NCBI GenBank assembly: GCA_017640445.1
Contig: JAEPQQ010000003.1
Coordinates: forward strand, 42,543 to 106,542
DNA from: Bacteroidia bacterium
GTDB taxonomy: Bacteria; Bacteroidota; Bacteroidia; NS11-12g; UBA9320
Direction: 5' to 3'
Length of the DNA: 64,000 nt
In this document: one piece after another, positions 39,181 through 58,904 of the stretch
Position numbering within the stretch: position 1 is the first letter of the stretch
How the letters are laid out: the number at the start of each line of letters is the position of its first letter
The notes under the pieces: model-generated
The model's database searches: none
The model's input: the letters and a program-made list of their open reading frames with translations, nothing else
Told to the model about the DNA's origin: nothing
Position numbers and translations under genes: made by a program

Positions 39181-42129
39181 ATGAACCGCTTACGTATTAA
39201 CTCATTGACCAAATCAGTACTAGTTTTACTGGTTGTATTTATTCAAAGTGTCTCTTCCGGTCTTGCGCAAGAGATTAAACTCTTAAAAGACATTTGGGAT
39301 GCCGAGGATCCCGGGAGGTCTTCTACACCTCAACATTTCATTGAATACGGCGACCTGCTGTTGTTTGTTGCGCAAGAAGAAAAAACGGGAGTCGAACTAT
39401 GGTCTACCGACGGAACTGAGGCAGGAACCAAGTTAGTTAAGGATATTTACCAGGGCCCCGCCCCCTCACAGGTCTCACAATTAACGTTATACCAAAACGA
39501 AGTATACTTCACAGCGAACGATGGGGTTCATGGACAAGAACTATGGAAAACGGATGGAACCGAGGCAGGCACGCAAATAGTGGTAGACGCAAACCTAGGT
39601 GCATTAGGCTCCTCCCCTCTCTATCTCACAGCACACGATGGATTCCTTTATTTCTCAGCATGGGATGCTGATCGTGGTCGAGAACTTTGGAAAACCGACG
39701 GTACTTCAGCGGGAACCACTTCGTTCGATCTGGTAACCGGTCGTTTTAGCGGTGACCCAATCTCCATGGTTAGTTATAAAGGTTACCTGTATTTTGGTGG
39801 TAATGACGTTAGCAGCCTTCATAGTCATGACCTGTGGAGAACAGATGGAACCCCCGAAGGAACCGAAAAGATTGGAACAGGCAGCGATCGCTCTGACGTT
39901 TCTGTATCTGCCCTGACAATTTCAGGGAATAATTTATTCTTTAATGCCTTTTCCGACGGGTCAATTAACAAACAACTTTGGGTTACCGATGGTTCAAAAA
40001 CGGGCACCCGCCTGGTCAAAAAAATTGATTACCGGTTTGGCGACAGACAGGGACCTCAATCGATGACACCTGTCAATAATGGCATCTACTTCAGTGCAAT
40101 GGATTCGTTACATGGACGAGAACTCTGGTGGAGCGATGGCACTGAACAAGGCACCTATCTAGTTAAAGATCTGGAACCTGGTGTTGGGAGTTCAGTTCCA
40201 AACTCTTTCACCGAATGGAAGGGCAAGGTTATTTTCAACGCTCACACAAGCCTCTTTGGCCAGGAGCCTTGGTCTACCGATGGCACGGAACAAGGAACTC
40301 AACTGATTAAAGACATAGCCCCCGGAACGTTTAGATCGGTCATTGGTAACAACAGCTATGTACCGTTCAATGGAAGGTTATACTTTACCGCGAATGATGT
40401 TGCACATGGCGATGAGCTTTGGCGAACCGACGGTGATTTTAGTAGTACGGAATTAGTAAAAGACCTATCACCGGGTCTCCCTGGATCGTCACCCTTTTTC
40501 CTAACCCCGTTTAAAAACAAACTGATCTTTGCTGCCGGTGATACAGCTGTTGGCAGGGAGTTGTGGATATCCGATGGCACCGAGCATGGCACCAAGGTAC
40601 TTGCGAACATTTATTCGTATCCGGGCAGTTCGCAACCAATCGGAATTACAGTAGTAGGCAACGACTTATATTTCAATGCAAATCATCCGGTTAACGGGTT
40701 CGAGCTTTGGAAATCAGATGGGACAGAAGATGGTACCTTTCTCGTACACGATATTCTTCCCGGAAAAGATGGTTCTTTCCCCCAATTCATGACGGCCGGA
40801 GAGGGCAACGTTTTCTTCATTGCCACCGATGAAGACCATGGAAGAGAACCCTGGTTTAGCGACGGAAATGAGACCCGACTTGTAAAAGACGTCAACCAGG
40901 GAATCGCAAGCTCCTCCCCCTTTAGCCTCACTCGCTTTAAGGACCATATTTATTACGTAACCCGGAATGAGATTTCGGGCTTCATGCTCCGAAGGATGAA
41001 TGTTCACACGGGCAAGTCATCCTTGGTTAAAAGCTTCTTCATCGGGTTTCAGTCTACGTCACCTGGTCAGCTAACCGTATGCCGTGGTCGTTTGTTTTTT
41101 ACCGTTTTCCACGAAGAAACTGGATCTGAACTGTGGTCTACCGATGGAACTGAAGCCGGGACCAAACTGGTTAAAGATATTTGTCCAGGTATCTGTTCAT
41201 CATCCCCTAGAAACCTGTTCAACCACAATGAAATTCTGTACTTTACCGCTCGCGGTGAAACTACCGGAACTGAATTGTGGCGATCAGACGGAACACCCGA
41301 GGGTACCCGACTGGTTAAGGATGTTCGCACGGGGTCGGGACATGCAGAATCACGCCCCATGATTAGCCTGGGAGACCTCCTGTTCTTTTCGGCAATCGAT
41401 CTTAGCGGCAGGTATGGACTATGGAAAACGGATGGCACAACCGCAGGCTCCCGACGAGTTAAAGATGTGAGCCCAGGTTTCTTATCGTCAGGCTTTCTGG
41501 ATGCTGTGGTTATGGACGGCATCGTTTACTTCTCGGCATCGCAATACGGGTCAAACAATTACGAGTTATGGCGCAGTGATGGAACTGAAAAAGGCACGTT
41601 TCTGATTAAAGACATTAATCCAAAACCCTATGGTTCCAACCCTAGCCAGTTTACTAACTTCTATGGCCAACTGTATTTTATTGCAACCGACGAACAGGGC
41701 ACCGAACTATGGACGAGCGATGGTACAGAAGACGGTACGCGTATGGTGCAAGACCTATACCCAGGTCTATGGGCGTCTCACCCTCAGGAATTAACGATTG
41801 TTGGACAACGATTATACTTTGTAGCAACTACTTACGATCACGGACGAGAGATCTACTACATAGAGGACCCCAGCATCGTTTTGCCCGAACCAGACCCAAT
41901 ACCGCACTGGTATTATCCAAATCCTTCTAACGGTTTGTTAACGATTGAACTTCAGGAGTTTGATTATACCGCGCCCGTCGGTTTTGAGATCATTGACGTT
42001 ACTGGGCGCCTTCATATGGTTGGGCAGGTAAAAAACCCAAAACAAGACATCGATGTTTCGCGACTTCTTAATGGTATGTATATCGTGAAATTGTCGAACG
42101 GACTGTCAGGTAAACTGATCCGATTTTAA
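39181..42129 (+). CDS. ELWxxDGT-repeat protein (about 17 tandem repeats of ~50 aa) with a T9SS type A C-terminal sorting domain
   Basis: Recurrent 'GxELWxTDGTEAGTxLVKDIxPG'. C-terminal 'YYPNPSNGLLTIEL...LLNGMYIVKL'. Confidence 0.8.
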   Translation: MNRLRINSLTKSVLVLLVVFIQSVSSGLAQEIKLLKDIWDAEDPGRSSTPQHFIEYGDLLLFVAQEEKTGVELWSTDGTEAGTKLVKDIYQGPAPSQVSQLTLYQNEVYFTANDGVHGQELWKTDGTEAGTQIVVDANLGALGSSPLYLTAHDGFLYFSAWDADRGRELWKTDGTSAGTTSFDLVTGRFSGDPISMVSYKGYLYFGGNDVSSLHSHDLWRTDGTPEGTEKIGTGSDRSDVSVSALTISGNNLFFNAFSDGSINKQLWVTDGSKTGTRLVKKIDYRFGDRQGPQSMTPVNNGIYFSAMDSLHGRELWWSDGTEQGTYLVKDLEPGVGSSVPNSFTEWKGKVIFNAHTSLFGQEPWSTDGTEQGTQLIKDIAPGTFRSVIGNNSYVPFNGRLYFTANDVAHGDELWRTDGDFSSTELVKDLSPGLPGSSPFFLTPFKNKLIFAAGDTAVGRELWISDGTEHGTKVLANIYSYPGSSQPIGITVVGNDLYFNANHPVNGFELWKSDGTEDGTFLVHDILPGKDGSFPQFMTAGEGNVFFIATDEDHGREPWFSDGNETRLVKDVNQGIASSSPFSLTRFKDHIYYVTRNEISGFMLRRMNVHTGKSSLVKSFFIGFQSTSPGQLTVCRGRLFFTVFHEETGSELWSTDGTEAGTKLVKDICPGICSSSPRNLFNHNEILYFTARGETTGTELWRSDGTPEGTRLVKDVRTGSGHAESRPMISLGDLLFFSAIDLSGRYGLWKTDGTTAGSRRVKDVSPGFLSSGFLDAVVMDGIVYFSASQYGSNNYELWRSDGTEKGTFLIKDINPKPYGSNPSQFTNFYGQLYFIATDEQGTELWTSDGTEDGTRMVQDLYPGLWASHPQELTIVGQRLYFVATTYDHGREIYYIEDPSIVLPEPDPIPHWYYPNPSNGLLTIELQEFDYTAPVGFEIIDVTGRLHMVGQVKNPKQDIDVSRLLNGMYIVKLSNGLSGKLIRF

Positions 42130-42695
42130 GATAACATCTTACCCACCTGTTGCTCTACGGCCTCAAACAAGTGCTCAGGCTTTTTGGTTTTCCAGTTCCA
42201 GGTAGCCTCGTCATCCTCCTCCAGGCGAACGTAGGAATCAATACCCGCAGCCTCCATCTCATCCATAACGTGGTCCCGAAAATGTAAGAAAGCCACCCAA
42301 CCACCCGGGGTATCTTCCCACCACTCCTGGTAATACGAATCATCGCTGGCATGAAAGTTCAACACGTTTTCACCTAGAAGTATGAACTTCTCAATTCCAC
42401 ATTCCAACATTTCATCAATGATTTCTCGCTTTAATGTTGCGATGTCGTTGTTAATACAATCGTTCCACTCTCCTATCATCTCAAGAATGGCATACCCCTT
42501 CTCATAATCAACAAACAATACTTTTAGGAGCAACGTATCACTTCCAAAGTAGTCCCACTGCGGATGAATAGCATAGTTGTATATTTTGTTCGTAAACTCG
42601 AACTGGCTATGTTCCGTGTTATAAAAGGGACTGTCGGCATCGTCGCTGGCCCGATACAAGTGTCTCCAAAGAAAATGTGGTTCAATCTGATGCAT
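42126..42695 (-). CDS. Hypothetical cytoplasmic protein
   Basis: 189 aa acidic ORF overlapping the GT2 start by 14 nt. No recognisable motif. Confidence 0.4.
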   Translation of the reverse strand: MHQIEPHFLWRHLYRASDDADSPFYNTEHSQFEFTNKIYNYAIHPQWDYFGSDTLLLKVLFVDYEKGYAILEMIGEWNDCINNDIATLKREIIDEMLECGIEKFILLGENVLNFHASDDSYYQEWWEDTPGGWVAFLHFRDHVMDEMEAAGIDSYVRLEEDDEATWNWKTKKPEHLFEAVEQQVGKMLS

Positions 42696-43614
42696 GTTCG
42701 ATATTGGAATCCTGTATTACATACAACGGACGCTCCTTAATGTTTTCATTAATTCGACTGATGTATTCGCCAATGATTCCAATTCCGATGAGTTGAATGC
42801 CTCCGATAAATACCATTGTCACCATTTGCGACGCCCAACCCGGCTGATAATCTTTGATTACATAGCGCGAATACAATGTATAGAGTATGAGCAAAAAACC
42901 TATAAACGAGAAAACAAATCCCGATATCGTTGCAATTTTCAGCGGCCAGTTACTAAACGATGTAATACCATCCAATGCAAACCGTATCATTTTAGCATAA
43001 CTGTAACCCGTTTCCCCACTCATTCGCTCCTCGCGTTCGTAGGTCACATCAGTTTGGTTAAAACCGATCCATGATATCTGCCCCCTCAGAAACTTCTGAC
43101 GTTCAGGCATCTTACGAAGCTGTTGTACCACTTTTCGATCGATGATCCGGAAATCACCTGTATCTAATGGAATGTCAATTTGTGTAATACGGTTTAACAC
43201 CCGATAAAACCACTTAGCAGTGGCTCGTTTCATTATGGACTCACCTTTACGTTGTGCACGTTTGGCATACACAACCTCGTATCCTTCCAGGCTTTTTAGA
43301 TACAGTTGTTCAATCACCTCCGGCGGATCCTGGCCATCAGCATCAATGATCACCACCTTATCTCCGGTAACATGATCGAGGCCCGCACTAACTGCAATTT
43401 GATGACCAAAATTGCGACTGAAGTGAATGTACTTCACCTCCTGGTGTTCCTTAGCCAATTGGTTCAACACCTGTTTGCTACTGTCTGAGCTTCCATCATT
43501 CACATAAACAAACTCCCCTTCCACATTCAGCTTTTCCAACACGGCAGTAATACGCTCGTACATGGGCACGATGTTGTCTTCTTCATTGTAAATGGGAATG
43601 ATTACAGAAATCAT
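42682..43614 (-). CDS. Family 2 glycosyltransferase (polyprenyl-phosphate sugar synthase, DPM1/GtrB-like) with two C-terminal TM helices
   Basis: 'ISVIIPIYNEEDNI' and 'VIIDADGQDPPEV', the DxD region. Confidence 0.8.
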   Translation of the reverse strand: MISVIIPIYNEEDNIVPMYERITAVLEKLNVEGEFVYVNDGSSDSSKQVLNQLAKEHQEVKYIHFSRNFGHQIAVSAGLDHVTGDKVVIIDADGQDPPEVIEQLYLKSLEGYEVVYAKRAQRKGESIMKRATAKWFYRVLNRITQIDIPLDTGDFRIIDRKVVQQLRKMPERQKFLRGQISWIGFNQTDVTYEREERMSGETGYSYAKMIRFALDGITSFSNWPLKIATISGFVFSFIGFLLILYTLYSRYVIKDYQPGWASQMVTMVFIGGIQLIGIGIIGEYISRINENIKERPLYVIQDSNIEHASD

Positions 43615-43784: not shown

Positions 43785-43792
43785 TAAATTTG
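43785..43792 (+). promoter_or_regulatory. Candidate Bacteroidetes sigma-A -7 element (TAnnTTTG) for the unknown operon
   Basis: 'TAAATTTG' lies about 27 nt upstream of the first ATG (43820). Confidence 0.35.
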
Positions 43793-43819
43793 GGCAACTT
43801 AAAAATTAATTCAAAATCT

Positions 43820-45193
43820 ATGTCTGATTCTTTTGATTTACTTGACCAATTAGGTGACCAGAAAAAAGTAGAAAACCTTAAAGCAAAACTTGAAAAAAAG
43901 TCCAACGAAAACATTGCAACCAAACTGGACAAAATAGAAGCCGAAATCGAGAAAGCAGTTGGCGAAAACCGCTCTTCTGAAGAAATCGTTAGCAATATTA
44001 TTAACTCCAACTTCGATACGTTAAACGGCGATGTGGAGGCCACTGAACAAGACCTTCAGGAACTCATGCTTCACCTCCGGTCCATGCTGGACAGTTGTGG
44101 TGGGGAGTTTTCTAAACTTCAGGAGTTAAACACGTCGGAACAGAAGTTGATCGACAACGCAACAAAAGCCCGGGAAGAGGCTGAACAAGAAGCCAAAGAT
44201 GCTGAGTCTATGTCGAATGCCTGGAACATTTTGTTTGGGTATAAAAACAGCAAGGTAAAACGTACAAAAGCCGAACTCGAGCAGAAAGTAGAAGCGCTGA
44301 AAGCAGCCGAGGCAGAAGCGCAGAAACGTTATCGCGACCGACTTAAAAATGCCGACATCGGTGAAAGTCTGAACCGTATCATTAGCCAGGTTCAAGGAAT
44401 GGTTGGTATCGTAGAGGAAATGATTCTGGAAGTTGACAACCAGATTGTTGCCCTGAAAAACCGTAAAGAGCTTGCTTTCGAAACCAAGGAAAAAGCAGCT
44501 CAGGTTATGGAAGATCGGAAAACCGACCTCGAAGAGGTTGAGAACCAACTGAAACAAGCGGAGACCGAACTAACTGAACTTCCGAACAACAGCCCTGAAT
44601 ATACGGAACAACAGAAAAAAGTTGCTGACTTGAAAGAACGTCGTGCCGACTTAAAAGGAAAATTCAACATTGCGCTTGGTATTTTCCAGTCGAAGGAACG
44701 TTTTGTTGATCAGATTGTAGTTCACCTGGAAGCACAAACCACTACCAAAAACAACTTAAAACAGTTGATTGGTCAGTTGAAGAGTGACACGGAAGAGCGT
44801 GTAACCACGTATGAATCAGGATTACAGCTTATTCAGTCTGCAACGGCTCAGGAAGCTGCCTCTATGTATGAGGAAGCAGGTGTAAAGACCGATCAGAAAA
44901 TTACTGAGATCGCTGCCAAGGTATTGGTGGGTTCCGAAAAAGATCGTATCGAGCGTGTGAAGAAACATCCTCAGCGTATGACGGAACTTCACAAGGTGCT
45001 TGTTGCCATGGCTGAAGCTACCGCCAAATACAAAGCAGAAGATGCTAAGATAATGGAAGAGCACAGCAAAAAGTTTGGCATCGACGTTAGCCAAACATTC
45101 TCCCATAAATACGAGAAAAACAGCGAACCGTCGAACAACGATGGTGGTTCTTCTGAGCCAACAAATGATTCTGTAAACGAATTGATGGACTAA
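43820..45193 (+). CDS. Operon gene A: acidic all-alpha coiled-coil protein of about 458 aa, no TM (ESCRT-III/PspA- or TelA-like by composition only)
   Basis: Continuous heptad-rich, K/E-rich sequence with an acidic Ser-rich C-terminal tail. The track start at 43790 is a TTG. The first ATG is at 43820. Confidence 0.6.
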   Translation: MSDSFDLLDQLGDQKKVENLKAKLEKKSNENIATKLDKIEAEIEKAVGENRSSEEIVSNIINSNFDTLNGDVEATEQDLQELMLHLRSMLDSCGGEFSKLQELNTSEQKLIDNATKAREEAEQEAKDAESMSNAWNILFGYKNSKVKRTKAELEQKVEALKAAEAEAQKRYRDRLKNADIGESLNRIISQVQGMVGIVEEMILEVDNQIVALKNRKELAFETKEKAAQVMEDRKTDLEEVENQLKQAETELTELPNNSPEYTEQQKKVADLKERRADLKGKFNIALGIFQSKERFVDQIVVHLEAQTTTKNNLKQLIGQLKSDTEERVTTYESGLQLIQSATAQEAASMYEEAGVKTDQKITEIAAKVLVGSEKDRIERVKKHPQRMTELHKVLVAMAEATAKYKAEDAKIMEEHSKKFGIDVSQTFSHKYEKNSEPSNNDGGSSEPTNDSVNELMD

Positions 45194-45212
45194 GGCCCGC
45201 GAAAACTGAAAT

Positions 45213-46310
45213 TTGAAGACAATTGACATAAACAATCACTTTACAGAGCTCGACCGAAGCATTCTGGAAGGTGAAACTGCATACTCTGATTACTTCAACT
45301 ACGTTCGGGATTGTTTGAACATCTTATTAAGCTCGTTCGACAACATCACCACGCAAAGCTCGCTTGAAATCAAAGTGCTTAAGAGTTTCTCTCAGAAGTT
45401 CTTAAATACGATTGAAGCATTTCGACTCAAGTATGCCTTTGAGGATGAAAGCCCCATGCGTATTGACTTGACAGAAAGTGGCTTCCCGAACTTTATGGAG
45501 TTTAAGAAGTTAAACGACGACATTGATCGAAAGGAGACTGCTTTGGAGAAACTACCTAGTCAGGACTCACTCAAACAAAGTATTCTGGACCACCTGATTC
45601 GAAAAAAAGAGGACCCAAGGCACCTACTTAAGCAACTGAGCCGATCGAGCTATTACATACGTTTGAAATGGAGCAACCTGTTTACAGAATTCACTCCAGG
45701 AACACTGGAACTTCTGAATGAACATACCGATAAAGCTCGTACCCGAACGTATTTCTACTCCTGGGCGTCTTACGACAGTGTAACAAACAAGCCTTTCATT
45801 TACACCATGGTCTTCGACAACAAGGCCATCTCGAAAGAAGGCGTCACCGACGTAGACAAAGACCCCGGTTTTGTTGAAACAATTAAACGTGTAACGCACA
45901 ATACTTCTCCATTGAAGGTAATTGCTTCCGACATCGACAATGCCTACGAAAGTGTTATGCCCAAGGTAATCAAACGTATTGAAATTGGTCCAATCTTCGG
46001 GAAGTATGCACAGGACAAACATCCGCATACACTGCTTATAAAAAAGCAATTTTCGGACGACGATTTCATCTTTACATACAACACAGAAATCGTCTTTTCA
46101 ACAGGTGAAAAACGAACCAAGTCCTTCCTGTCTAAAGGGGAGCTCCGGCAGGTGTTCTATGTCGACGAGTCGAACAAGGAGTGTATGGAAAAAATGGTCT
46201 CCGACTATCATACATACCTGATCACTTCTCACAAGGTACTGCAATACCTTAACGACAATGAACCCGACATGTTAAAGGATCTTTCGGCACCTGTTTACAC
46301 CTACAACTGA
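45213..46310 (+). CDS. Operon gene B: hypothetical protein
   Basis: 365 aa. No motif recognised. 19-nt gap from gene A. Confidence 0.55.
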   Translation: MKTIDINNHFTELDRSILEGETAYSDYFNYVRDCLNILLSSFDNITTQSSLEIKVLKSFSQKFLNTIEAFRLKYAFEDESPMRIDLTESGFPNFMEFKKLNDDIDRKETALEKLPSQDSLKQSILDHLIRKKEDPRHLLKQLSRSSYYIRLKWSNLFTEFTPGTLELLNEHTDKARTRTYFYSWASYDSVTNKPFIYTMVFDNKAISKEGVTDVDKDPGFVETIKRVTHNTSPLKVIASDIDNAYESVMPKVIKRIEIGPIFGKYAQDKHPHTLLIKKQFSDDDFIFTYNTEIVFSTGEKRTKSFLSKGELRQVFYVDESNKECMEKMVSDYHTYLITSHKVLQYLNDNEPDMLKDLSAPVYTYN

Positions 46311-46311
46311 T

Positions 46312-48270
46312 ATGGAAAAACAAGAATCATCATTATTAAAAATTAAGGAGGATGACCTCCTTGTCTATAAAGACGACATAACGGCGTACCTGAAACAAGT
46401 AAGCTGGCTGCCCGATGGGAAGTCTTCTACAACCATTGATCTGAACTTCTTAACCAACGTTAGTAAGGCTCTTGATCTGAACCAGGAAGACACAGTTTCC
46501 ATTTTAAAGGAAGCCGTTCGAATCAGCAACGACCGAGTTATTCTATCGAATGCAAGCAATCATGTGCTTAACGCTGTTCGGAAAGGTTATACCATTGGTA
46601 AATATCTGGCCAACCTTTATTCGGAAGCGAGTGGGCTTGAACTGCTTCAGCAAAAGAATCAAAACGGTAGTCTTCACCAGTCGGAGCTACCCGAGTTTCA
46701 CGATAAAAGTCAAACTCAGAGTGCTGTTTTATTGTTCGGTTCAGCGTCTTACATCAAGTTTGCGTTGCAGGATTATTTGGCGGACCAGGTTTCAAGCATT
46801 CAGATCGACTTTGGCGGAATACCTCAGCTTAGTCTTACACGCCCGTCAAAGGCCATACAATGTAGCCTTTATTATTTCGGCGCCTATTTGGAGCGATCGG
46901 GTGTGGTTACATCCGACCTGCACCTTGTCAAACTGACCTTACTGTACTTTGAACGGGTTATTGAAGAGGTGCTTCTTCGAAAGAACGCCTTGAAATATTT
47001 GGAAGCCTTTAACCAGAACCATTACAAACTGGAAAACTCTGAGTTTATGGTTCAGGGGCTTGAAGCTCCCTCTTCCATTTCAGTTAAGGGCATGCAATTC
47101 AACCCTACCCGAATGGAGGACATTGTTGCCAATAAACAGGCTAAGCACTTATTTAAGCGATATGCTGAACGACTGCTTTGTTATGATTTTGACGCACGAA
47201 AAAACCCCATCAACGAACTTGGTGGCTTGCCGTCTATAACCATGGCTGATGGGAAGCCCGGTACAGGTAAGAGTATGCTCATTGCCGCAACTGCTACCTT
47301 GCTCCAGGAACGTTGTGATCAATTGGGTCACAACTTCTTGTTCTGGCCACTTCCAGAGACCATTGTTTCGACCTTTCAAGGAGGAACCGCCGAGCGGGCA
47401 ATGGAGTGGTTCAAACCCATGCAGGACCCTAACAAAATTGTATTTGCACCAATAGACGATGCAGAAAACAACCTGGAAGAGCGAACTCGTCAGGGAGTAT
47501 CTGCCGGTGTTCGAGAGTTTATCGGGGTATTCCTCCGAAATACTGAAGGTGCATACGCCATCAATCACGGAAACCGGTTAATGAGTCTGTTTACCAATAT
47601 TCCCGACCAAATTGACAAGGCCGTTTTGTCACGGATTCAAATGCGCATCTCGATGGAGGGAGCCACCTCCAAATATGACTTTATCGATCAGGATTACCTA
47701 TGGTGGAAAAAGTACAACGAACTGGATTCCAAATTCGTAGACAATAAAAAACCAAAGGCTTATGAATACATGGAAGCCCAAAAGGCCGCTACCTCGATCA
47801 ACGAACTTGTAGCAACCCAATATCGCTTTGGCAACACCGACGTGGAAGAAATGTTCCATGCCGTACAAAAAGAAATGGATGTTCAAAGCCATGAATTCTT
47901 TGGCGTATTCTACAATCGGATTTTGGAAAAGTATCCGTTCTTTTCATCGCGCGACCTTCGTAACATTCAGAAGGCGGTAGATGCGCGATTAATAGACTTT
48001 GACCTGCCATCGGTGTGGTGGGACAACCCGGATGACTTCTTTAACCAGGCGTATGACAAAAAGCTCGACATCCTTAAAGACCTGATGAAGCAAAACATGA
48101 AGGGAGTTTCGTTTGGCGATGTGCGACTTTATGAGGCCTTGAACTACATAGAGAACTCCATTCGTATCAACGAAACGGGAGTAAACAGAGAAATTAAAGC
48201 CCGCGCAAAACAACTGTATATACAGCAGCAGGCAAACGAAGAATTAAGGAAGGGAAACATCCATGATTAA
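46312..48270 (+). CDS. Operon gene C: classic-clade AAA+ ATPase (single AAA module at about residues 290-480) with unknown N- and C-terminal domains
   Basis: Walker A 'GKPGTGKSML', non-canonical Walker B 'IVFAPIDDAEN', a second-region-of-homology-like 'YAINHGNRLMSLF', and Arg-finger region 'LSRIQMRISM'. Confidence 0.75.
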   Translation: MEKQESSLLKIKEDDLLVYKDDITAYLKQVSWLPDGKSSTTIDLNFLTNVSKALDLNQEDTVSILKEAVRISNDRVILSNASNHVLNAVRKGYTIGKYLANLYSEASGLELLQQKNQNGSLHQSELPEFHDKSQTQSAVLLFGSASYIKFALQDYLADQVSSIQIDFGGIPQLSLTRPSKAIQCSLYYFGAYLERSGVVTSDLHLVKLTLLYFERVIEEVLLRKNALKYLEAFNQNHYKLENSEFMVQGLEAPSSISVKGMQFNPTRMEDIVANKQAKHLFKRYAERLLCYDFDARKNPINELGGLPSITMADGKPGTGKSMLIAATATLLQERCDQLGHNFLFWPLPETIVSTFQGGTAERAMEWFKPMQDPNKIVFAPIDDAENNLEERTRQGVSAGVREFIGVFLRNTEGAYAINHGNRLMSLFTNIPDQIDKAVLSRIQMRISMEGATSKYDFIDQDYLWWKKYNELDSKFVDNKKPKAYEYMEAQKAATSINELVATQYRFGNTDVEEMFHAVQKEMDVQSHEFFGVFYNRILEKYPFFSSRDLRNIQKAVDARLIDFDLPSVWWDNPDDFFNQAYDKKLDILKDLMKQNMKGVSFGDVRLYEALNYIENSIRINETGVNREIKARAKQLYIQQQANEELRKGNIHD

Positions 48271-49534
48271 ACTGATCCAAAACGGTTTATTTGGTCATTC
48301 ACTGGTACAAGTGAGTACCGAGTCGATGATTAAACGATACAACGACTGTTTGAAGGATATTGGCCTTGCCCCAACGAGGTTGACGTCGTTTCACATCGAC
48401 GGCTGGGGTTGGAGTCCGGAGATTGCTGAGGAACAGGGTGACCGGTTTTATCTGTCTCACGGTTTGGCGAATCCATATGGGATTATAGTAAGTCCCAAAC
48501 AAGCTAATAGCTCCATCTATTTACCTTATCATAGTTTCGACAGGGCAATTCACAAGACCATATTTGAGCAGTACGCTGATCAAATCAAAGACATTACATC
48601 GCGATCGGGCCTATGGTTTGAACTTGACCAGGAAATATCGGCTTACCGATCACCGCAGGACCTACTGATGGTTGATTATGTGAAATTGAACTTCTTTTCA
48701 GTAGATCGCATTATGACCGCCGCTCAGGATCAACGGGCACTGATTCGGGAGTTCTACGACAAACCTCATGCCTGGTCGAACGACGAACTTCGACAACGCA
48801 TCATCGATAGCAGTGAGCGTCATGGAGACCTGAGGTACTCAAAATTTGAGATACCCGCTCATCCTTTCAACGAAATCGAGAACTTCTTCACGGTTGCTTT
48901 TAACGGTGTATACGTGTTTAAAAAACTTCCAAACGGCAAACCTCTTCTGGTACACCAGTCGGGCGATTCCAGCGTATCGGGAGAAACGAAACACGGGCAC
49001 GTAGAATACAACGTCAACGATCCTGAACTCATCAGCTATCTGTACAATGCGGGTATGATCTCGAACAACATCAAACTGTTTGAAGAGCACCCTGTGCTGT
49101 TGGAACTTATGCAAGAGCATCTTTTGTTAGAAGCCGCGTCCAAGTTAGAAGAACCAGTGGACTTCTCAACCATCAACGCTACGCAAAAGAAAGGTGTAGT
49201 GAATCGGCTGATGAAGCAAAACCTTCTTGGAGATGCCTACTTTGAGTTCGAACGGCTCATTATGGATGTTCGCGATGGTTCCGTTGGCGCGTCTTACTCT
49301 ATACCCGATGTTTTACGCCCGTTTTTGCTGAACCCTGAAGCCAAGCTTTCGTCTCAGGAAAAACTGGTGTTGTGGCAGTTGTTATGCACCTACAACCCGG
49401 CCAACCCGGTGTTCACCTATTTGTTTGACAAATCAAGTTTTTACTCTCAGTATAAAACCTGGGATGAAAAACTGCAGCTTTGGATTATCCAAAAAATACT
49501 CGCTCATAAAGAAATTTTTAACGCCTTGATTTAG
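48263..49534 (+). CDS. Operon gene D: hypothetical protein
   Basis: 423 aa. 8-nt overlap with gene C. No motif recognised. Confidence 0.55.
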   Translation: MIKLIQNGLFGHSLVQVSTESMIKRYNDCLKDIGLAPTRLTSFHIDGWGWSPEIAEEQGDRFYLSHGLANPYGIIVSPKQANSSIYLPYHSFDRAIHKTIFEQYADQIKDITSRSGLWFELDQEISAYRSPQDLLMVDYVKLNFFSVDRIMTAAQDQRALIREFYDKPHAWSNDELRQRIIDSSERHGDLRYSKFEIPAHPFNEIENFFTVAFNGVYVFKKLPNGKPLLVHQSGDSSVSGETKHGHVEYNVNDPELISYLYNAGMISNNIKLFEEHPVLLELMQEHLLLEAASKLEEPVDFSTINATQKKGVVNRLMKQNLLGDAYFEFERLIMDVRDGSVGASYSIPDVLRPFLLNPEAKLSSQEKLVLWQLLCTYNPANPVFTYLFDKSSFYSQYKTWDEKLQLWIIQKILAHKEIFNALI

Positions 49535-49541
49535 CGCTTCT

Positions 49542-50057
49542 ATGGATACTTTTTTATCACTACTTGTCGGTTTCGTTATTGGGATTCTGTTCTTTGCCTG
49601 GGACAACAAAAAAGGATATGTGTGGTACAAACGTTGGTACGACCTAAGCCATAAAACACCCCTGGATTCGGACAATGTTTACAGTTTTATAAACAACCAG
49701 CCGTTTTCAAAGAGGCTGGTTCCTGCAATCATCTTAACCGTTCTTTTCGCCTGGGGCTCGTGGTTATTAGGTGACCTAAACCTCATTATTACGCTGGTTA
49801 CCGGTATGCTTTCACTGGTTGGTGTGATAGCCGGTTTCTACGTTGGCCCGATGGTTATGAACAAATTACCTAAAGGTTTAAAAGAGGCAAATAAAACCCT
49901 TAAGAAGATTGACGAATTAGAGAAAGACCTTCTCGACGACCAAAAAGAACCGAAACCGCAACAACCCCAGGCTCCTGAACAAAGCTCAAGCGACAAAACC
50001 GACGACAAAAAAGATACCGATTGGAGAAAAGGTGTTCAGGATTTTCTTGATAAATAA
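49542..50057 (+). CDS. Operon gene E: small 3-TM membrane protein with a charged cytoplasmic tail
   Basis: TMs 'LLVGFVIGILFFAW', 'AIILTVLFAWGSWLL', 'LVTGMLSLVGVIAGFYVG', and a K/D/E/Q-rich C-terminus. Confidence 0.55.
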   Translation: MDTFLSLLVGFVIGILFFAWDNKKGYVWYKRWYDLSHKTPLDSDNVYSFINNQPFSKRLVPAIILTVLFAWGSWLLGDLNLIITLVTGMLSLVGVIAGFYVGPMVMNKLPKGLKEANKTLKKIDELEKDLLDDQKEPKPQQPQAPEQSSSDKTDDKKDTDWRKGVQDFLDK

Positions 50058-50068
50058 CAAAACCACAC

Positions 50069-51658
50069 ATGGAAGAAACCACCGAACAACAAAACAACAG
50101 ACTCTATTGGATTGTCGTAAATCTACGAACCAGAATTTCGACAGCCTTAAAGAAATTCATTAAGAAACGTCCCATCCTTTCCGGGATTGTGATGTTGGTA
50201 ATTGCCTACTTCATCTTTACCGGACGCAGTGGAATTCAACCCGCGTTTCTGTTAATTCGGAAGTTCTTCTTATTGGCGTTGCTGTCGTTGGTGATTTTGT
50301 GGTGGTATTTTAAGGGGTGGAAAACACGTACCAACAGGGGCAACATAATCGGAACGATCTTCCTGCTTGGTTTTGCTGCGTTTAGCTATTTCATTGGACC
50401 AGGTCTGTTTCGATACCTGAGCCTTTATACGCACTACACCAAGCTCGAAAAGGTGGCTTTGACCGAACTGCCCCCTACTGGATTTGAACGGATTCAACCC
50501 ATCAATTCAGTTAGTACCTTAATTAATCAGGAAGCACTGCGGGAAACCGAAGATGCAACACCTCCACGGTTCATGAGAGGTAAAGACGGTAGATATTATT
50601 ACAGTTGTGCTGTTGGACCAGCGAAAGAATATAAGATTCAACAGGTGAGCAAGAATATGTACAAGGTCATTTTTGTACCATCCGACCTACCGGCTCCTGT
50701 GTTCTCTGGCAAATACCGTTCGGATGTAAGTTTTGACATTGGTGAACTTCTCTTGTTCAGTAAAAAGACAACAAGTGCCGTTATCAAAAGATTTACACCG
50801 TTGCAATTCCTAAACTACGAGCCAGCCGAACCGCTTTTTCTTCAAAACGACGAAGGTAAATGGGTTCAGGTGGTCCCTCTCATCAAATGGAGAGGCTTTC
50901 TGTTTCCAAGACCCGTCTTTGGTGGGGTGATGGTTATTGAGGATAAGTCAACCTCGAAAGGCTATTTCTCAAGGGTATTTTTTGGCAAGGGAACGTTCAT
51001 CCCAAAAGCTGAAATTTCCAAGCACCCTTATCTGGTTGGGCAAAACCTCATTCCAAAACAAGTTGCACGGTTTGTTGCCGAAAGCTTTCGCTTTGCCAAT
51101 GGCTTCTTTGCCCCAATGCCTTACTACCATGAGGGTGACATACGTATTCCACACCTGCCAAACGACGTAAACCCACAACCGTTTGTTACCTACTTCAATG
51201 TTCCGGGCGCTCCTAAACTGTACAACTTCTTTGGGCTCGAACCGTATCAGGAAACCAAGAAAGGGCTTAGCCTTAGTCTTCTCATTCCAGGTGACGACGA
51301 TGAACGGGTGTTCTACATGGATCATCGCCAATCGGAAAACACCTATATCGGAAGCAGTGCCATCTCTGCAAAAATTATTGAAAGCAAAAAGAACTACGAC
51401 TGGAGCAAGAACTACCCGGCTGAAAGTCGTCCGTTTGTTCGAAAAGTTGATGGAAAGTCAAGGTTTATGTGGTTAAGCACCATTGTAACAAAGGCTGGCG
51501 ATCAGGGAGAGTACATCGGTGGTAGTATACCGGAACTTACTCTAACGGATGCCACCCATGGGAAAGTGGTCTGGATCAATTCCGACTCCCTCATCAACAA
51601 CGATAGTTGGATCCATCTGGCTGAAGAGGAATTGCAGGAATATTGGCGAAAAGAATGA
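50069..51658 (+). CDS. Operon gene F: membrane protein with 4 N-terminal TM helices and an extracytoplasmic domain of about 400 aa
   Basis: Hydrophobic N-terminal helices followed by an aromatic-rich soluble domain. Confidence 0.55.
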   Translation: MEETTEQQNNRLYWIVVNLRTRISTALKKFIKKRPILSGIVMLVIAYFIFTGRSGIQPAFLLIRKFFLLALLSLVILWWYFKGWKTRTNRGNIIGTIFLLGFAAFSYFIGPGLFRYLSLYTHYTKLEKVALTELPPTGFERIQPINSVSTLINQEALRETEDATPPRFMRGKDGRYYYSCAVGPAKEYKIQQVSKNMYKVIFVPSDLPAPVFSGKYRSDVSFDIGELLLFSKKTTSAVIKRFTPLQFLNYEPAEPLFLQNDEGKWVQVVPLIKWRGFLFPRPVFGGVMVIEDKSTSKGYFSRVFFGKGTFIPKAEISKHPYLVGQNLIPKQVARFVAESFRFANGFFAPMPYYHEGDIRIPHLPNDVNPQPFVTYFNVPGAPKLYNFFGLEPYQETKKGLSLSLLIPGDDDERVFYMDHRQSENTYIGSSAISAKIIESKKNYDWSKNYPAESRPFVRKVDGKSRFMWLSTIVTKAGDQGEYIGGSIPELTLTDATHGKVVWINSDSLINNDSWIHLAEEELQEYWRKE

Positions 51659-52869
51659 TTGGCCTAAGACTTGCATTAACGACTTGCCTGATGCTGACGG
51701 CTTGTTTTTCCTTTTGCCAAAAAGTCAAACGAGTTAAGCAGAAAATGGAAAACAAAACCATCAAGCACATTTATGTGAGGCAAGATGGTTTGGAACATTT
51801 GGAAACGGGCGAGTTCTACCTGATTCAAAAGAAAGACACCTTGTCGAAAGGCAGGTCTTTTGCAAATGGCCTGATTCACACCTATGCTGGTGACACCACC
51901 TGGGTCACGCATAAGGACCGACCAGAGTACAAAGGCATGATGATCAACGGTAAAAAAGAAGGTCAATGGGTATTTGTGCATCGCCTGGGATACACAGGAC
52001 ACCTCCTCTACAAGAACGACAAACAAGTTGGTGATGTCTCATCCTTTTTTCCCAATGGCAAACCCTTTGTTCATTACCATCTCGACGACTCTTCAAAACA
52101 AGACGGACGTTTCGTTTTAATGAACGCCCAAAACGACACTGCTGCTGTCATACATTTTAAGGCCGACAAGCCACATGGCACCATGTGGACCAAATACTCC
52201 TCAGGGAACTACTTCTGCAAGGCCATATACCGGAATGGTAAGCTCTGGACCTACGATGAATTCGACTCAGAGGGTAAACTCAATCCCGAATCATCTGTAA
52301 AAGACGGTAATGGTACAGTGCTAATTAAGAGTGCCACGGAGTCCAAAACAGAACCGATCATGGAAGTACGTTTTGAAAACGGTTACCTGCACGGCCCGTC
52401 CACCAATTTTCAGGTAACCAATGGAGAGAATATGGAGTTTTACAAAAAAGGCGTTCTTGTTGAAAGCATGTACGAAAAATCAAGTGATTCCTCCACTAAC
52501 TGGTCGTCATGGTTTGCCTACATGATGTTCAAAGACAAGAGTGGTCGTTATCTGGGCTATGGACGAGCCAAATTTGGTGATACTGAATTGGAATTGGCGC
52601 TGGATCGATACGTTGATGATAACATACGCGTTCCTGACATTGCTTACGAAATGGCAAAATCGGGTCAGGTTATTGTGGAGTTTACGGTTGAACAAGATGG
52701 TAGGGTAAGCAATTTGACAATTGGATCAGACGTAAAATTAGGTTATGGGGTGGAACAGGCGTGTTTGAACGTTATTGAACAAACCAGTGGCTCGTGGCGC
52801 CCATTCACCCGGTTTGGTTTACCGCAACGAATTAGGTTTACCAAGCCAATCGGGTTTAACTTTTTCTAG
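51643..52869 (+). CDS. Operon gene G: lipoprotein with YwqK/MORN-variant repeats and a C-terminal TonB_C-like domain
   Basis: Signal/lipobox 'LTTCLMLTAC'. Repeated 'G.W..Y..NGKL' units. C-terminal 'VIVEFTVEQDGRVSNLTIGSDVKLGYGVEQACLNVIEQTSGSWRPF' fits the TonB C-terminal pattern. 16-nt overlap with gene F. Confidence 0.6.
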   Translation: MAKRMIGLRLALTTCLMLTACFSFCQKVKRVKQKMENKTIKHIYVRQDGLEHLETGEFYLIQKKDTLSKGRSFANGLIHTYAGDTTWVTHKDRPEYKGMMINGKKEGQWVFVHRLGYTGHLLYKNDKQVGDVSSFFPNGKPFVHYHLDDSSKQDGRFVLMNAQNDTAAVIHFKADKPHGTMWTKYSSGNYFCKAIYRNGKLWTYDEFDSEGKLNPESSVKDGNGTVLIKSATESKTEPIMEVRFENGYLHGPSTNFQVTNGENMEFYKKGVLVESMYEKSSDSSTNWSSWFAYMMFKDKSGRYLGYGRAKFGDTELELALDRYVDDNIRVPDIAYEMAKSGQVIVEFTVEQDGRVSNLTIGSDVKLGYGVEQACLNVIEQTSGSWRPFTRFGLPQRIRFTKPIGFNFF

Positions 52870-54488
52870 AACACCTCAACCTTGGCATACCCCACCATAC
52901 CATTTTCAATAATGCGGATAAAGTAATGGCCCGGTTGGTTTAGCTCTACACCTACCCTGGCATTAGACGAAGTCAAGAATTTAACAATAGAGCCGTAGCT
53001 ATTAAATACTTCAATAACACGTTCTTCTCTCGACTCAAATTCCAATGTACAATGCCCGGAAGTTGGGTTGGGATACACTTTATGTAATCTGGGCGACACC
53101 AAATCGTTATTTCCAACAATCACATAAGTGCCACAAAAACGGTTGCTATCCAGATCCACCTCTAGTTTCCCATTCGGTGCCAGTGCCTCAAAGCACAAAT
53201 CCAGAATCGGGCCACGTTTAATACCCATAAAACGCGTTTTTGATTCAAATGTAGCTTCATCACCTGGTGCCAGGTTAAGGGAATCGAGCACCTCATAATA
53301 GATCGCATTTTGACACCAGGCAAGATGCCCTAGGTTGCAGAAGATAGCCACTGAGTGCAGTGTATCCAGGCCGACATTTTTGATTGCAAACTCTCCCTCT
53401 GCTGTAAAACTACCTACTTGGAATTCGTCAGTGGCAATGCGCCTCAATTGAGCTTGTTTTAGTTGTACATTGGGCGATGGTCTTTCGATGGGTCTTGTAC
53501 GCCAGGGTTGAGCGAACGCCATCATCTGGCCAGAGTACGAATTCCCGGTAAAAATGAACTCCGATTGGGTTCGATGAACATCGGTCACGTTACCTCCTGG
53601 ATTCTGATACATAATAGTGTTCCAGGATGAGTTGGTTTGTTCATGGAGCACGACCTGGTTCGTATCGGCTTCTATAATAAATACGGTGGCATCAATCAGT
53701 TTGATTTTTTTAAACTCTTTGGATGCCTGAAGCAAAGTATCCCTAACGATTAGTCCGGTATCCATTCGAAGAATTGACTTATCTGTTTGAAGTAACACAT
53801 TATCTCCTTGTAACACGGCACCCTGTATTCCGCCTATGTAGGAACTGGAATCAAGTAACACACCAGAAGTATCTGCCTTATAAACGCGCTCTTCGGTTGA
53901 CAACAAAAGCGTTGAACGATCAACAAAGACCATGGCCACCAGTGGTGACCCCATATTGAGCCACCTGGCTGATCCGATCTCGCGTGCAGCTGTATCAAAC
54001 GTAAACAAAGCATTATCAACGCCAATTGCGCCCAATCCATCCCCGTTAAAATCAACCAAAATGGGTTACTCCCAGGGAGGTTTAAGGTACAAGGGTTCTG
54101 TGGTTTCCAGCGTATAGAGCTGCTTCCCATTTGGGCTATATGCGGCAAAGACCACTCGTTCATCCATAACCACATCCCCACTATTGTATTCAACCCCTAC
54201 GGTATGAATAATCGAAGGAGTAGTAAAAATGGTTCGAAAGAACGCATTTGACGTATCCCTGGATGTTAAATGCCACTTTTCCACACCGTTTTGAAGAGTC
54301 ACAATACCTTGATAAAAACAAGACGGAACGGACAGTTTACCTCCAACAATCAATAGAGAATCGTTAAACACAGCTGAACCCAATAGAGTGGATTTGGTAT
54401 GCGAAGTTTCTGTATCAACCCACGACCAGGACTGGCACAACGCAAGGTTGGCATACAAAACGAACAAAAAACTAAGGAAGTGTTTCAT
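52866..54488 (-). pseudogene. T9SS-secreted FG-GAP-like protein gene interrupted by one in-frame TAA (rc of 54066-54068). ORFs 54066..54488 and 52866..54059 form a single reading frame.
   Basis: Upstream ORF has the signal peptide 'MKHFLSFLFVLYANLALC'. Downstream ORF begins at a TTG and ends with Por_Secre_tail 'KVYPNPTSGHCTLEF...QPGHYFIRI'. Same frame, separated by TAA plus two codons. Confidence 0.6.
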
Positions 54489-54564
54489 GGTATCAAAAGT
54501 GTACGAAAGCTTCTCCGAAGATACGGCTTCCGAATATCACAGGCCGTCAGTTGGTTGTCATATA

Positions 54565-54595
54565 CAAAAAAGGCCCGACAATGTCGAGCCTTTCT
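54565..54595 (-). terminator. Bidirectional terminator-like hairpin
   Basis: 'aaaaaaGGCCCGACaatGTCGAGCCtttct'. Confidence 0.4.
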
Positions 54596-54767
54596 GTGGT
54601 GTGGGGCGTACCACAACCATTTTATTTTATTTGACTACATTGTACTATTAAAGCCTAAAAATACAAATAATCTTCATATTAACAACACAATACAATCACA
54701 TCACATACATGTTGTTCGTCCCCAATATTGTCCCCCATTTGGATATATCATATATTTGCGGGGACAA

Positions 54768-56081
54768 ATGAACGTAATTAACATCCCAAATCCTACCATA
54801 AGTTTTCACCCTAAAAATCTCAAGGCCAAATCAAACACTGTACTTTACGCCAGGGTTTATTGGAAAGGGCAAGATTTTAAAGTTTATACCAACTCAAAAG
54901 TAGACCCCATCAAATGGAAGGAACATAAACGAAAATCCAAAAAGTCCGACTTTGATAGTCTTTTTGGAAAAACTTCCATCTATGGTGATCTAAACACAAT
55001 AAGAAATCAAATCATTAATGCATTCGAATTATATAAAGCTCAAGTGATTAATACGGGCAACGAATTTGTATTCAACGAATTCAAATCTTTATGCAGGGAC
55101 AATCTTACTAAAGACAAAAATGTTCAGCGCGGAGATTACCGAACTGACCTAATTGCTTTTGCTAAACACTATTACGCAGAACTTAACGGCCATAGGGCAA
55201 AAGGAACGCTAAAAACGTATAATACATTAATCACTCAGCTAGAAGCATTCAAAGAGACTAGTAACAAACTGTCTTTCGACCTGAAGGACATTGACCTTAA
55301 GTTCTATCATGAATTTGTTTCTTTCTTGTACTCTATCCCTACTCCTACCAAAACTCCAGTCAAAGCAAACACAGTAGGTAAGAAAGTCGCAATTCTTAAG
55401 GCATTTTTAAGGGAGTCGCATGACCGTGGCTATCACAACAACACTGCATACCTCAAAAGCAGTTTCAAAACACCAAGAGAAGAGGTGGATTCTGTTGTAC
55501 TATCTCCAGAACAGGTTCAAACAATTTCCAATTTGGACTTGAAAGAACACCCTGGTCTTTCTGCGGTTCGAGACATCTTTATTTTCAACGTAAAATGTGG
55601 CCTTAGGTATAGCGACCTACAAACCATAACACGTGACATTATGATTGTTGACAGTAACGACAATAGGCAGCTAAGAATCAAATCACAGAAAACTGGTAAG
55701 GACATCCTCCTTCCGTTGATTCCTGAAGCCCATGAAATTTGGGCACGATATGACTACAAATTCCCACATATATGGCCTCAGAAGTTTAATAAAAAGATCA
55801 AGACAATAGCAAAGTTGGCTGAGCTTCAAGATAATTTTTCAGTAGAACGGACTAGTGCCAAAAATGTAAAAACCAGAGAGACACGTCCTTTCTGTGACTG
55901 GATATGCACGCATACAATGAGAAGGACCTGGGCTACTACAGAGTATCGCAGTGGAATCCCTTTATACATAATATCTCGACTTTTGGGGCATAGCTCCGAA
56001 AAGGTCACTAGAAGATACTTAAAGATTGACCTTGACCAAGTAGCATCAGATTATTTCAGTTATAAGAAAAAAAATGACTGA
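54768..56081 (+). CDS. Tyrosine-type site-specific integrase (Bacteroidetes phage-integrase family)
   Basis: C-terminal catalytic region 'HTMRRTWATTEYRSGIPLYIISRLLGHSSEKVTRRYLK' (R...H..R..Y), 438 aa from the ATG at 54768. Confidence 0.8.
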   Translation: MNVINIPNPTISFHPKNLKAKSNTVLYARVYWKGQDFKVYTNSKVDPIKWKEHKRKSKKSDFDSLFGKTSIYGDLNTIRNQIINAFELYKAQVINTGNEFVFNEFKSLCRDNLTKDKNVQRGDYRTDLIAFAKHYYAELNGHRAKGTLKTYNTLITQLEAFKETSNKLSFDLKDIDLKFYHEFVSFLYSIPTPTKTPVKANTVGKKVAILKAFLRESHDRGYHNNTAYLKSSFKTPREEVDSVVLSPEQVQTISNLDLKEHPGLSAVRDIFIFNVKCGLRYSDLQTITRDIMIVDSNDNRQLRIKSQKTGKDILLPLIPEAHEIWARYDYKFPHIWPQKFNKKIKTIAKLAELQDNFSVERTSAKNVKTRETRPFCDWICTHTMRRTWATTEYRSGIPLYIISRLLGHSSEKVTRRYLKIDLDQVASDYFSYKKKND

Positions 56082-57018: not shown

Positions 57019-57100
57019 GTTACATTTGATCTACATCTAGGTTACATATTTTCAACACACAACGAATTTATGCACATTTAACTGAGGCCTATAGGTTACG
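57008..57100. repeat. Cluster of four GTTAC(A/G)T direct repeats (iteron or arm-site-like)
   Basis: GTTACG 57008, GTTACAT 57019, GTTACAT 57041, GTTACG 57095. Confidence 0.5.
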
Positions 57101-57139
57101 TTTTAAGAGCCCCCCTATTTTCAGAATTAAATTTGTAGT

Positions 57140-57436: not shown

Positions 57437-57453
57437 ATCTAATCCATAAAAAT

Positions 57454-57642
57454 ATGAAAAACATAATTCACATAGATCCTGAAGTTAGTCGATATAAATA
57501 CTTTACGATTGTTCCAGACATAAATTTCACAAGCATTATTCCTGAAGAGCTACAGAATGAAAAAAACATTGACTTTGCTATTTATTTTATAAGTCTATTG
57601 TGCAAACGAATTGGCTACTCACTTAATGGACAATCATGCTAG
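57454..57642 (+). CDS. Small hypothetical ORF (62 aa)
   Basis: Fills the gap between the Xis-like gene and the next ORF. Codirectional. Confidence 0.25.
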   Translation: MKNIIHIDPEVSRYKYFTIVPDINFTSIIPEELQNEKNIDFAIYFISLLCKRIGYSLNGQSC

Positions 57643-58898: not shown

Positions 58899-58904
58899 TA
58901 TAAT

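Follow-up and report, generated by a model that had tools for sequence, protein, structure and literature searches.

Stable helical or oligomeric assemblies are dismantled by several classical AAA ATPases, among them Vps4, NSF, katanin/spastin and TRIP13, which thread a disordered segment at a terminus. TRIP13 is a single-ring AAA protein with a client-binding N-domain and remodels a dedicated partner via a terminal tail, and PspF, the AAA+ protein of the phage shock protein (Psp) system, is a sigma-54 enhancer-binding protein with a helix-turn-helix domain. Most membrane-scaffolding proteins of bacteria are not known to have an AAA partner of their own, and we know of few multi-gene machines that are conserved from Bacteroidota to the tiny genomes of the candidate phyla radiation (CPR) and are still wholly unannotated. 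Here, we analysed a 64,000-nucleotide stretch of DNA from a Bacteroidia bacterium (GenBank assembly GCA_017640445.1, contig JAEPQQ010000003.1; the whole stretch is called the window) and found a conserved cassette of six genes, A to F, around an AAA ATPase. A to F form a self-contained module with the core A-C-E-F that looks vertically stable, and we propose, with a rough probability of 0.4, that this module acts as a membrane-anchored AAA+ remodelling machine.

In a preliminary description of the window, the cassette was part of an operon of seven genes, A to G. Seven codirectional and tightly spaced open reading frames (ORFs) do span 43790-52869 on the + strand, with +19 nt between A and B, +1 nt between B and C, -8 nt between C and D, +7 nt between D and E, +11 nt between E and F and -16 nt between F and G. 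The last overlap holds only with a TTG start at 51643 for G; with the ATG of the public gene call (51691), the F-G junction becomes a gap of +32 nt. The genes are as follows.

43820-45193, + strand: gene A, cytoplasmic, all-helical protein of 457 aa; its N-terminal peptide (FDLLDQLG) is conserved, and its acidic C-terminal tail is disordered and ends in ELMD
45213-46310, + strand: gene B, cytoplasmic protein of 365 aa, present in the six-gene form of the cassette only
46312-48270, + strand: gene C, classical-clade AAA ATPase of 652 aa with an N-domain of ~260 aa (PF00004, E 1e-8)
48263-49534, + strand: gene D, DUF6638 protein (PF20343) of 423 aa, overlapping the end of C by 8 nt
49542-50057, + strand: gene E, membrane protein of 171 aa with three transmembrane (TM) helices, N-terminus out and C-terminus in (from hydropathy and charge distribution)
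50069-51658, + strand: gene F, membrane protein of 529 aa; it has a cytoplasmic helix at its N-terminus, then three TM helices and an extracytoplasmic alpha/beta domain of 418 aa
51643-52869, + strand: gene G, predicted lipoprotein (LTAC lipobox) with a TonB_C domain at residues 331-406; alternative start at 51691 (public call, 392 aa)

We scanned one genome per species for relatives of C, which gave 40 loci, and looked in each locus for A to G and for the genes that flank them in the window. In 37 of the 40 loci, the order A-B-C-D-(E)-F is kept, and the remaining three are contigs that end early. Since E is small and diverges fast, tblastn matched E itself in only about half of the loci (~21/40, mostly Bacteroidia and CPR); in the remaining inspected loci, we found a 3-TM ORF with the size and architecture of E. 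The carriers are metagenome-assembled genomes (MAGs) of Bacteroidia (C identity 57-84%), Flavobacteriaceae including cultured Winogradskyella, Hwangdonia and Mangrovimonas (~42-43%), and CPR/Patescibacteria (Sungiibacteriota and Buchananbacteria, 39-44%). Searches with F added Verrucomicrobiota, namely Rubellicoccus peritrichatus (cultured, complete genome CP136920.1) and a Verrucomicrobiales MAG, in which A to F measure 438, 372-373, 647-652, 420-423, 122-183 and 531-563 aa, respectively, in the same order and between unrelated housekeeping genes. Wherever the flanking genes were listed, the cassette starts with A and ends with F, and the neighbours are on the opposite strand or unrelated. 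Within Bacteroidia, A (64-86% identity) and C (57-84%) are the best conserved proteins, compared to 37-76% for D and 28-70% for E. The order A-B-C-D-E-F, kept in Bacteroidota, Verrucomicrobiota and CPR bacteria, rules out a chance juxtaposition of the genes and bears out the idea of a conserved, uncharacterised operon around an AAA ATPase with cytoplasmic and inner-membrane parts. Hence, the existence of a conserved module is nearly certain.

The seventh gene does not travel with the others. No counterpart of G lies beside any of the 40 related cassettes, including that of the closest relative (L001), in which C has 84% identity and the glycosyltransferase genes upstream are in synteny. G is also missing from the Verrucomicrobiota and from the four-gene loci described below, and a search of the other loci for G-like or MORN-repeat neighbours returned nothing significant. 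Hence, as judged from gene neighbourhoods, the conserved unit is the six genes A-F (43820-51658) and not seven, and G is a local neighbour of the cassette rather than a member. This bears on the envelope-spanning machine that had first been suggested, a seven-gene, TonB-like assembly that includes lipoprotein G. For such an assembly, G is codirectional with F, abuts it and carries a TonB_C domain (PF03544, E 1.4e-6, 29.1 bits vs a cut-off of 24.6); the YwqK repeats that G was also said to have gave only a weak MORN/YwqK signal (E 0.04). However, TonB works with ExbB and ExbD in the system used for comparison, and we found no ExbB or ExbD match among A-F; in addition, the cassette occurs in CPR bacteria. 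Because G is outside the conserved unit, the argument for a machine that reaches the outer membrane loses its only periplasmic or outer-membrane part, and a seven-gene machine is essentially excluded as a conserved feature.

A reduced form of the cassette, A-C-E-F, is present in four full loci (L045, L048, L049 and L053), and in two short contigs A is directly followed by C. Since this form occurs without B and D, we take A, C, E and F to be the core. Going by gene content, B and D are an accessory pair that travels together and is limited to the six-gene form.

Scans of the seven proteins against Pfam, NCBIfam, PADLOC and PHROGs matched only AAA, DUF6638 and TonB_C, and family-level Pfam scans covered 58 diverse relatives of A, 18 of B and 18 of F. 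As first stated, no known pathway can be assigned to the cassette, and it fits as a member in none of the known systems with which we compared it. Four of the six families are unnamed, one is a domain of unknown function (DUF), and what can be recognised is limited to the AAA core. As no known system takes the cassette in, it appears to be new in kind.

Gene C had been called an AAA ATPase, and its Pfam match confirms this. We found Walker A at residues 314-321, a pore loop at S353-T-F-Q-G357, Walker B at P380-I-D-D-A-E385, sensor 1 at N429 and two arginines, R441 and R445, which sit where those of the second region of homology (SRH) are expected. Among 19 C sequences from three phyla, G314-K320, residue 355 (F or Y), N429, R441 and R445 are invariant. 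Walker B is also invariant in these sequences as D382-D383 (P-I-D-D-A-E), with an aspartate in place of the usual catalytic glutamate. Hence, by its motifs C is a member of the classical AAA clade (PF00004 with SRH), with the DD Walker B as the one deviation, and since Walker A, the aromatic pore loop, sensor 1 and both SRH arginines are all kept, C reads as an unfoldase.

The closest solved relatives of C agree in kind. A profile of the C family matched TRIP13/Pch2 in the PDB (E 4e-5), followed by VAT, Vps4 (E 3e-4), Rpt4, Cdc48, Pex6, AFG2, spastin and katanin, all of which are classical-clade unfoldases or disassemblases. These matches are restricted to the AAA core (residues 313-449 for Vps4); residues 1-260 have no detectable relative, and the lid is enlarged (about 455-540) by an insertion of ~60 residues. 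The likeness to TRIP13/Pch2-HORMA, as in type III of the cyclic-oligonucleotide-based anti-phage signalling systems (CBASS; Cap6/Cap7), lies in TRIP13 being the best solved match to the C profile; however, that match covers the AAA core alone, and Vps4, VAT and Rpt4 score nearly equally. We found no HORMA match in B or D, no PADLOC match to Cap6/Cap7 and no cyclase or effector genes, and so we rejected a TRIP13-HORMA or type III CBASS system. The AAA protein had also been described as Vps4-like; profile searches do not support this at the level of family, as neither MIT nor Vps4_C gave a Pfam match in C at E <= 1. Likewise, C has no Sigma54_activat match and no DNA-binding domain.

Gene A is always encoded with this ATPase, and it has no relative in Pfam, NCBIfam or the PDB, alone or as a family profile. 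It has no TM helix and no hydrophobic segment. The AlphaFold2 (AF2) model is entirely helical and of moderate confidence (predicted local distance difference test, pLDDT, 70; predicted template modelling score, pTM, 0.49), with helices at 53-101, 141-177, 180-253 and 259-380 (49, 37, 74 and up to 122 residues), and its last residues, 425-457, are an unstructured tail. Foldseek found no match to A in the PDB better than E 0.025 and returned generic helical bundles only. By searching 1.84 billion cluster representatives with the A profile, we found 236 clusters (50% identity) at E <= 1e-3 and 170 at E <= 1e-10; the family is compact, with nearly all members at 430-490 aa and aligned from end to end.

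Both ends of A carry short conserved motifs. The N-terminal peptide phi-L-x-x-L (FDLLDQL in the window) is present in 50 of 116 diverse members, compared to 12.9 ± 3.1 in shuffles. At the C-terminus, 18 of the 116 end in Ala-Ala vs ~1-2 expected, a count taken over cluster representatives that are phylogenetically non-independent, and 29 of the 116 (25%) end in Ala. The Ala-Ala tails of these distant homologues resemble ssrA-type recognition tags.

These tails bear on whether C serves regulated proteolysis or quality control. In that case, C would recognise its clients by a tail tag, A being an adaptor or a model substrate, and would either pass them to a protease encoded at another place or, like FtsH or Msp1, pull membrane proteins such as E and F out of the bilayer. 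Such a role fits with C being a classical-clade unfoldase whose pore loop is aromatic, with A-family tails that in many members end in ssrA-like Ala-Ala, and with the long disordered cytoplasmic tail of E as a possible engagement site. However, C has no protease domain, its C-terminus (GNIHD) is without a proteasome-docking HbYX-type motif, no protease gene is conserved in or beside the cassette, and the strict one-to-one co-occurrence of A and C suggests that A is reused as a partner and not degraded as a substrate. We consider a proteolytic role very unlikely.

[quoted passage not shown] Like ESCRT-III/Vps4 and the PspA/Vipp1/Snf7 loci with an AAA+ protein, the cassette combines a helical cytoplasmic protein, a classical-clade AAA protein and membrane partners in one operon, and recycling of a membrane helical scaffold via a terminal peptide is what we would expect here. 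The differences are that A is twice the length of an ESCRT-III subunit and that C has neither MIT nor Vps4_C. In searches for ESCRT-III/PspA/Vipp1, no Snf7 or PspA_IM30 profile matched A or any of its 58 diverse relatives, hhalign of the 116-sequence A profile with E. coli PspA gave a probability of 11.5%, and the fold searches were nonspecific. Hence, on these searches we rejected A as an ESCRT-III/PspA homologue, and the likeness first drawn finds no support as homology. An ESCRT-III/Vps4-type pair, in which an AAA enzyme remodels a helical scaffold, is our preferred functional analogy and is meant as analogy only, not as family membership. In a survey of PspA/Snf7 gene neighbourhoods, there are several bacterial associations of PspA with AAA proteins, none of them with DUF6638 or with E/F-like proteins (Ravi et al. 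2024, PMC11237479).

The other comparisons gave partial likeness as well. The cassette shares with the Psp system (PspA-PspB-PspC, PspF) a coiled-coil protein, small inner-membrane proteins, an AAA+ protein and the theme of envelope stress; it differs in that C belongs to the classical clade and has no DNA-binding domain and in that E and F are unrelated to PspB and PspC. With NSF/SNARE and katanin/spastin, the likeness is the disassembly of a stable helical assembly or the engagement of an acidic, disordered C-terminal tail as a template. The preliminary description had also named TelA-like stress modules. We found no match of A to TelA (PF05816) at E <= 1 and none in its 58 relatives at E <= 0.01; hence, A as a TelA protein was rejected.

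The two membrane proteins of the core are without a family too. E has the three TM helices first claimed, and no Pfam family. Its first cytoplasmic loop carries the conserved motif Y..WY.L[ST]HK.PL...GF[IV].NQPF..R, and its 72-aa cytoplasmic tail consists of a helix, a disordered linker and a basic C-terminal peptide. Across 17 loci of all lineages (25-70% identity), the architecture of E is the same, and only the cytoplasmic loop and the basic C-terminal peptide are conserved.

F had been described with four TM helices and a large periplasmic domain; the large outside domain stands, whereas the TM helices number three. Its N-terminal helix has a Y13-W14 motif, with W14 invariant in 18 locus sequences and nearly so in 109. 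The model of F is confident (pLDDT 91.7, pTM 0.89), and 30 positions are invariant among the 109 sequences, including E391, S403, H419, K441, E452 and R454. F has no Pfam family, the Pfam scan of its 18 family members showed no recurrent family, the fold of the outside domain is not matched in the PDB, and a profile search of PDB sequences with F was empty as well. Elsewhere, the sole remote relative that we found is a Halocatena marina protein of 537 aa (L051:5314-6927, megaplasmid NZ_CP110250.1), which stands alone and is homologous to the outside domain (hhalign 97.5%, E 7e-12). Its label, 'ABC transporter permease', looks unfounded, since the protein has no Pfam or NCBIfam match.

With the topology of E and F in hand, protein export or surface assembly can be weighed: C would unfold A, or another client, into a conduit formed by E and F, and A would refold outside as a helical-bundle fibre or as something like a translocator or pore-former. 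The disordered ends of A bear conserved short motifs that could act as export signals, and the cassette is found in CPR bacteria. However, the E-F pair has six TM helices only, A has no hydrophobic segment, its fold and sequence matches are all at the noise level of long helical proteins (none better than E 0.025 with Foldseek), and the diderm hosts have no conserved outer-membrane part, as G is not conserved. Moreover, we know of no bacterial precedent for export driven by a classical AAA unfoldase. We rate export as quite unlikely.

For the remodelling machine, we infer from what is established for the clade of Vps4, NSF, katanin/spastin and TRIP13 that A is the client of C and that C acts at an E/F platform. 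C would be a hexameric classical-clade unfoldase and A its dedicated client, an elongated helical bundle whose probable site of assembly, by itself or together with partners, is the cytoplasmic side of the inner membrane. The enzyme would take hold of A by its disordered C-terminal tail or by its conserved N-terminal peptide and then unfold or disassemble it. E and F would form the membrane platform, to which the cytoplasmic loop and the tethered C-terminal peptide of E recruit, and the cytoplasmic helix of F would, with E, keep the reaction at the membrane. F would also link the platform to its large outside domain, which may sense or act on the envelope, and B and D would be cytoplasmic cofactors limited to the six-gene version. 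Physiologically, the module would be likely to maintain or remodel the membrane or envelope, similar to an ESCRT-III/Vps4, NSF/SNARE or Psp-type cycle and without homology to these.

Several points weigh against this mechanism. A has no amphipathic membrane-binding helix, its N-terminus is acidic, and its most conserved stretch (340-400) has the lowest confidence in a model that is just moderate as a whole. The window's own clade of A (Bacteroidota) ends in DLMD or DLLS, without Ala-Ala, and the representatives that carry the Ala-Ala signal are non-independent. Given the invariant DD Walker B, ATP hydrolysis by C could be slow or regulatory.

If the remodelling machine is real, the cassette may be a new class of ATP-driven membrane machine, in which an AAA unfoldase cycles a helical scaffold on a two-protein platform, with B and D as add-ons. 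Such a machine would parallel ESCRT-III/Vps4 or NSF/SNARE in function and have an independent origin, and the cassette is spread over Bacteroidota, Verrucomicrobiota, CPR and further unassigned lineages; we put this forward as a tentative claim, somewhat more doubtful than the mechanism itself. The cassette is a defined, portable set of four to six genes with cultured carriers (Rubellicoccus peritrichatus and several Flavobacteriaceae), and it offers a clear biochemical hypothesis, namely threading of A by the AAA enzyme with a terminal tail as the starting point, along with an outside domain of F for which there is a confident model and no solved relative. Any role, be it in membrane remodelling, export or defence, would provide DUF6638 and the four unnamed protein families (A, B, E and F) with a function.

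The accessory pair has one recognisable member. D had been listed as a protein without a family; however, it matches PF20343 at E 1.5e-30 (106.9 bits vs a cut-off of 27), with residues 10-410 aligned on positions 2-391 of the 439-position model. Hence, by profile match D is a DUF6638 protein. All of its homologues among the matches listed (120/120) are DUF6638 or hypothetical proteins, and a profile search of the PDB returned no relative. No paper on DUF6638 turned up in the literature library searched, and a keyword search was also empty. B matches no family in any library searched and, by profile, no PDB sequence, and the Pfam scan of 18 members of its family likewise showed no recurrent family; its identity across the six-gene loci is 27-84%. 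Both B and D are missing from the four-gene loci.

The genomic surroundings of the cassette bear on defence, which had been among the first suggestions. An anti-phage or abortive-infection system is conceivable in which infection is sensed by A or by the N-domain of C, the AAA protein passes the signal on, and E and F are effectors that depolarise or permeabilise the cell. The distribution among distant phyla is patchy, the cassette is self-contained with exact boundaries and joins membrane proteins to an ATPase, it lies in this window 1.5 kb from an integrase-bearing, low-GC island, and genes of NUDIX or Ham1 nucleotide pyrophosphatases occur inside or beside some cassettes. However, none of the seven proteins matched a model in PADLOC-DB 2.0 (systems to 2023) above noise; the best values, E 0.003-0.6, fall on segments of coiled coil or P-loop. 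We found no match to F in 50,697 phage records and none confirmed in IMG/VR, none of the seven proteins has a significant PHROG, and the sole match of F on plasmids is the remote haloarchaeal megaplasmid homologue of its outside domain. Hence, with no phage, IMG/VR or plasmid copy in the searches with F, a phage or plasmid origin was rejected.

The flanking genes are also not those of defence islands. We scanned 89 proteins from the flanks of 15 loci, and none of the Pfam or PADLOC families is seen in more than two loci; the flanks differ between lineages, and the matches are to housekeeping proteins (isocitrate lyase, malate synthase, ferrochelatase, tail-specific protease and ABC ATPases), with no enrichment of defence genes. 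Seven further loci are flanked by genes such as those for tRNA synthetases, RuvC, catalase and transporters, and in the Verrucomicrobiota and four-gene loci sulfatases, P-type ATPases, TrkA and TGT are encoded nearby as well. In four inspected loci of Flavobacteriaceae, from at least three genera, a 563-aa ORF recurs upstream, which suggests shared upstream synteny. This ORF, the presence of the cassette in many Winogradskyella species and related genera, and the housekeeping flanks argue for stable vertical inheritance, and hence for a physiological module rather than a defence island. A and C are moreover highly conserved and not fast-evolving. We therefore regard a defence role as unlikely, and membrane remodelling remains the reading that we prefer.

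Some genes recur at the edges of the cassette or within it. A P-type ATPase of ~620-640 aa is encoded within four genes 5' of the cassette in a locus of Verrucomicrobiota (L044:193-2061) and in two four-gene loci (L048:1949-3865 and L053:7925-9823), and in two of these three loci TrkA_N genes lie just 3' of the cassette; this may reflect shared ancestry or chance. In Flavobacteriaceae cassettes, C and D are separated by an inserted gene for a NUDIX hydrolase (L018:12234-12818 and L025:11919-12530), and in a four-gene locus a gene for a Ham1-type NTP pyrophosphatase lies two genes 3' of F (L045:7431-7988), so that two unrelated nucleotide 'house-cleaning' enzymes are found at the same type of cassette. 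Some cassettes of Flavobacteriaceae have small genes for a '23S rRNA-intervening sequence protein' (PF05635) between D and E/F (L018:14241-14480 and L033:14556-14909), which break the tight operon. On one MAG contig (L047:3711-5709, GCA_016182325.1), three ORFs of 111, 317 and 206 aa stand in place of one intact ATPase gene, which indicates a decaying copy or assembly errors.

In the window, a single promoter had been proposed for the operon at 43785, where TAAATTTG is located.

43785-43794, + strand: promoter candidate TAAATTTGGG, a Bacteroidota-type -7 element ~27 nt 5' of the ATG of A

The motif class, TAnnTTTG, has 23 copies on the + strand of the window and by itself is weak evidence for a promoter. 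However, TAAATTTGGG is invariant in six related loci, in which the surrounding intergenic region is otherwise 64% identical, and its distance to the ATG is almost constant (within 1 nt). The TTG at 43790 falls within the motif. Hence, the invariance of TAAATTTGGG at a near-constant distance from the ATG supports the promoter and makes ATG 43820, not TTG 43790, the most likely start of A. A further conserved intergenic block, TGTCACTCATGT, lies ~115 nt 5' of the start codon of A. A scan for sigma-70 promoters and terminators gave matches at chance level, as expected for Bacteroidota, and an Rfam scan of 42.0-54.5 kb found nothing above threshold; its sole sub-threshold match, to rivX inside gene C (47004-47101, 19.5 bits vs a gathering score of 100), is almost certainly due to chance.

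The composition of the cassette is host-like, as first described, with a GC content of 0.44-0.45 that resembles that of the host DNA to its left. A tyrosine-integrase gene (54399-56081, 560 aa, Phage_int_SAM_5 and Phage_integrase) begins ~1.5 kb 3' of G. After this gene, the GC content drops from ~0.445 to 0.34-0.40, and 54399-64000 is a probable integrative element. Between G and the integrase gene, 52866-54059 on the - strand encodes a 397-aa protein with a C-terminal sorting domain of the type IX secretion system (Por_Secre_tail); the gene is convergent with G, and their stop regions share 4 nt. Upstream of the cassette and divergent from A, 42126-43614 on the - strand holds genes for a family 2 glycosyltransferase (GT2, 310 aa) and a 189-aa unknown protein, with synteny limited to the five closest relatives. 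Further upstream, 39181-42129 on the + strand encodes a 982-aa protein with no Pfam match, whose relatives in the five closest loci are just 28-34% identical.

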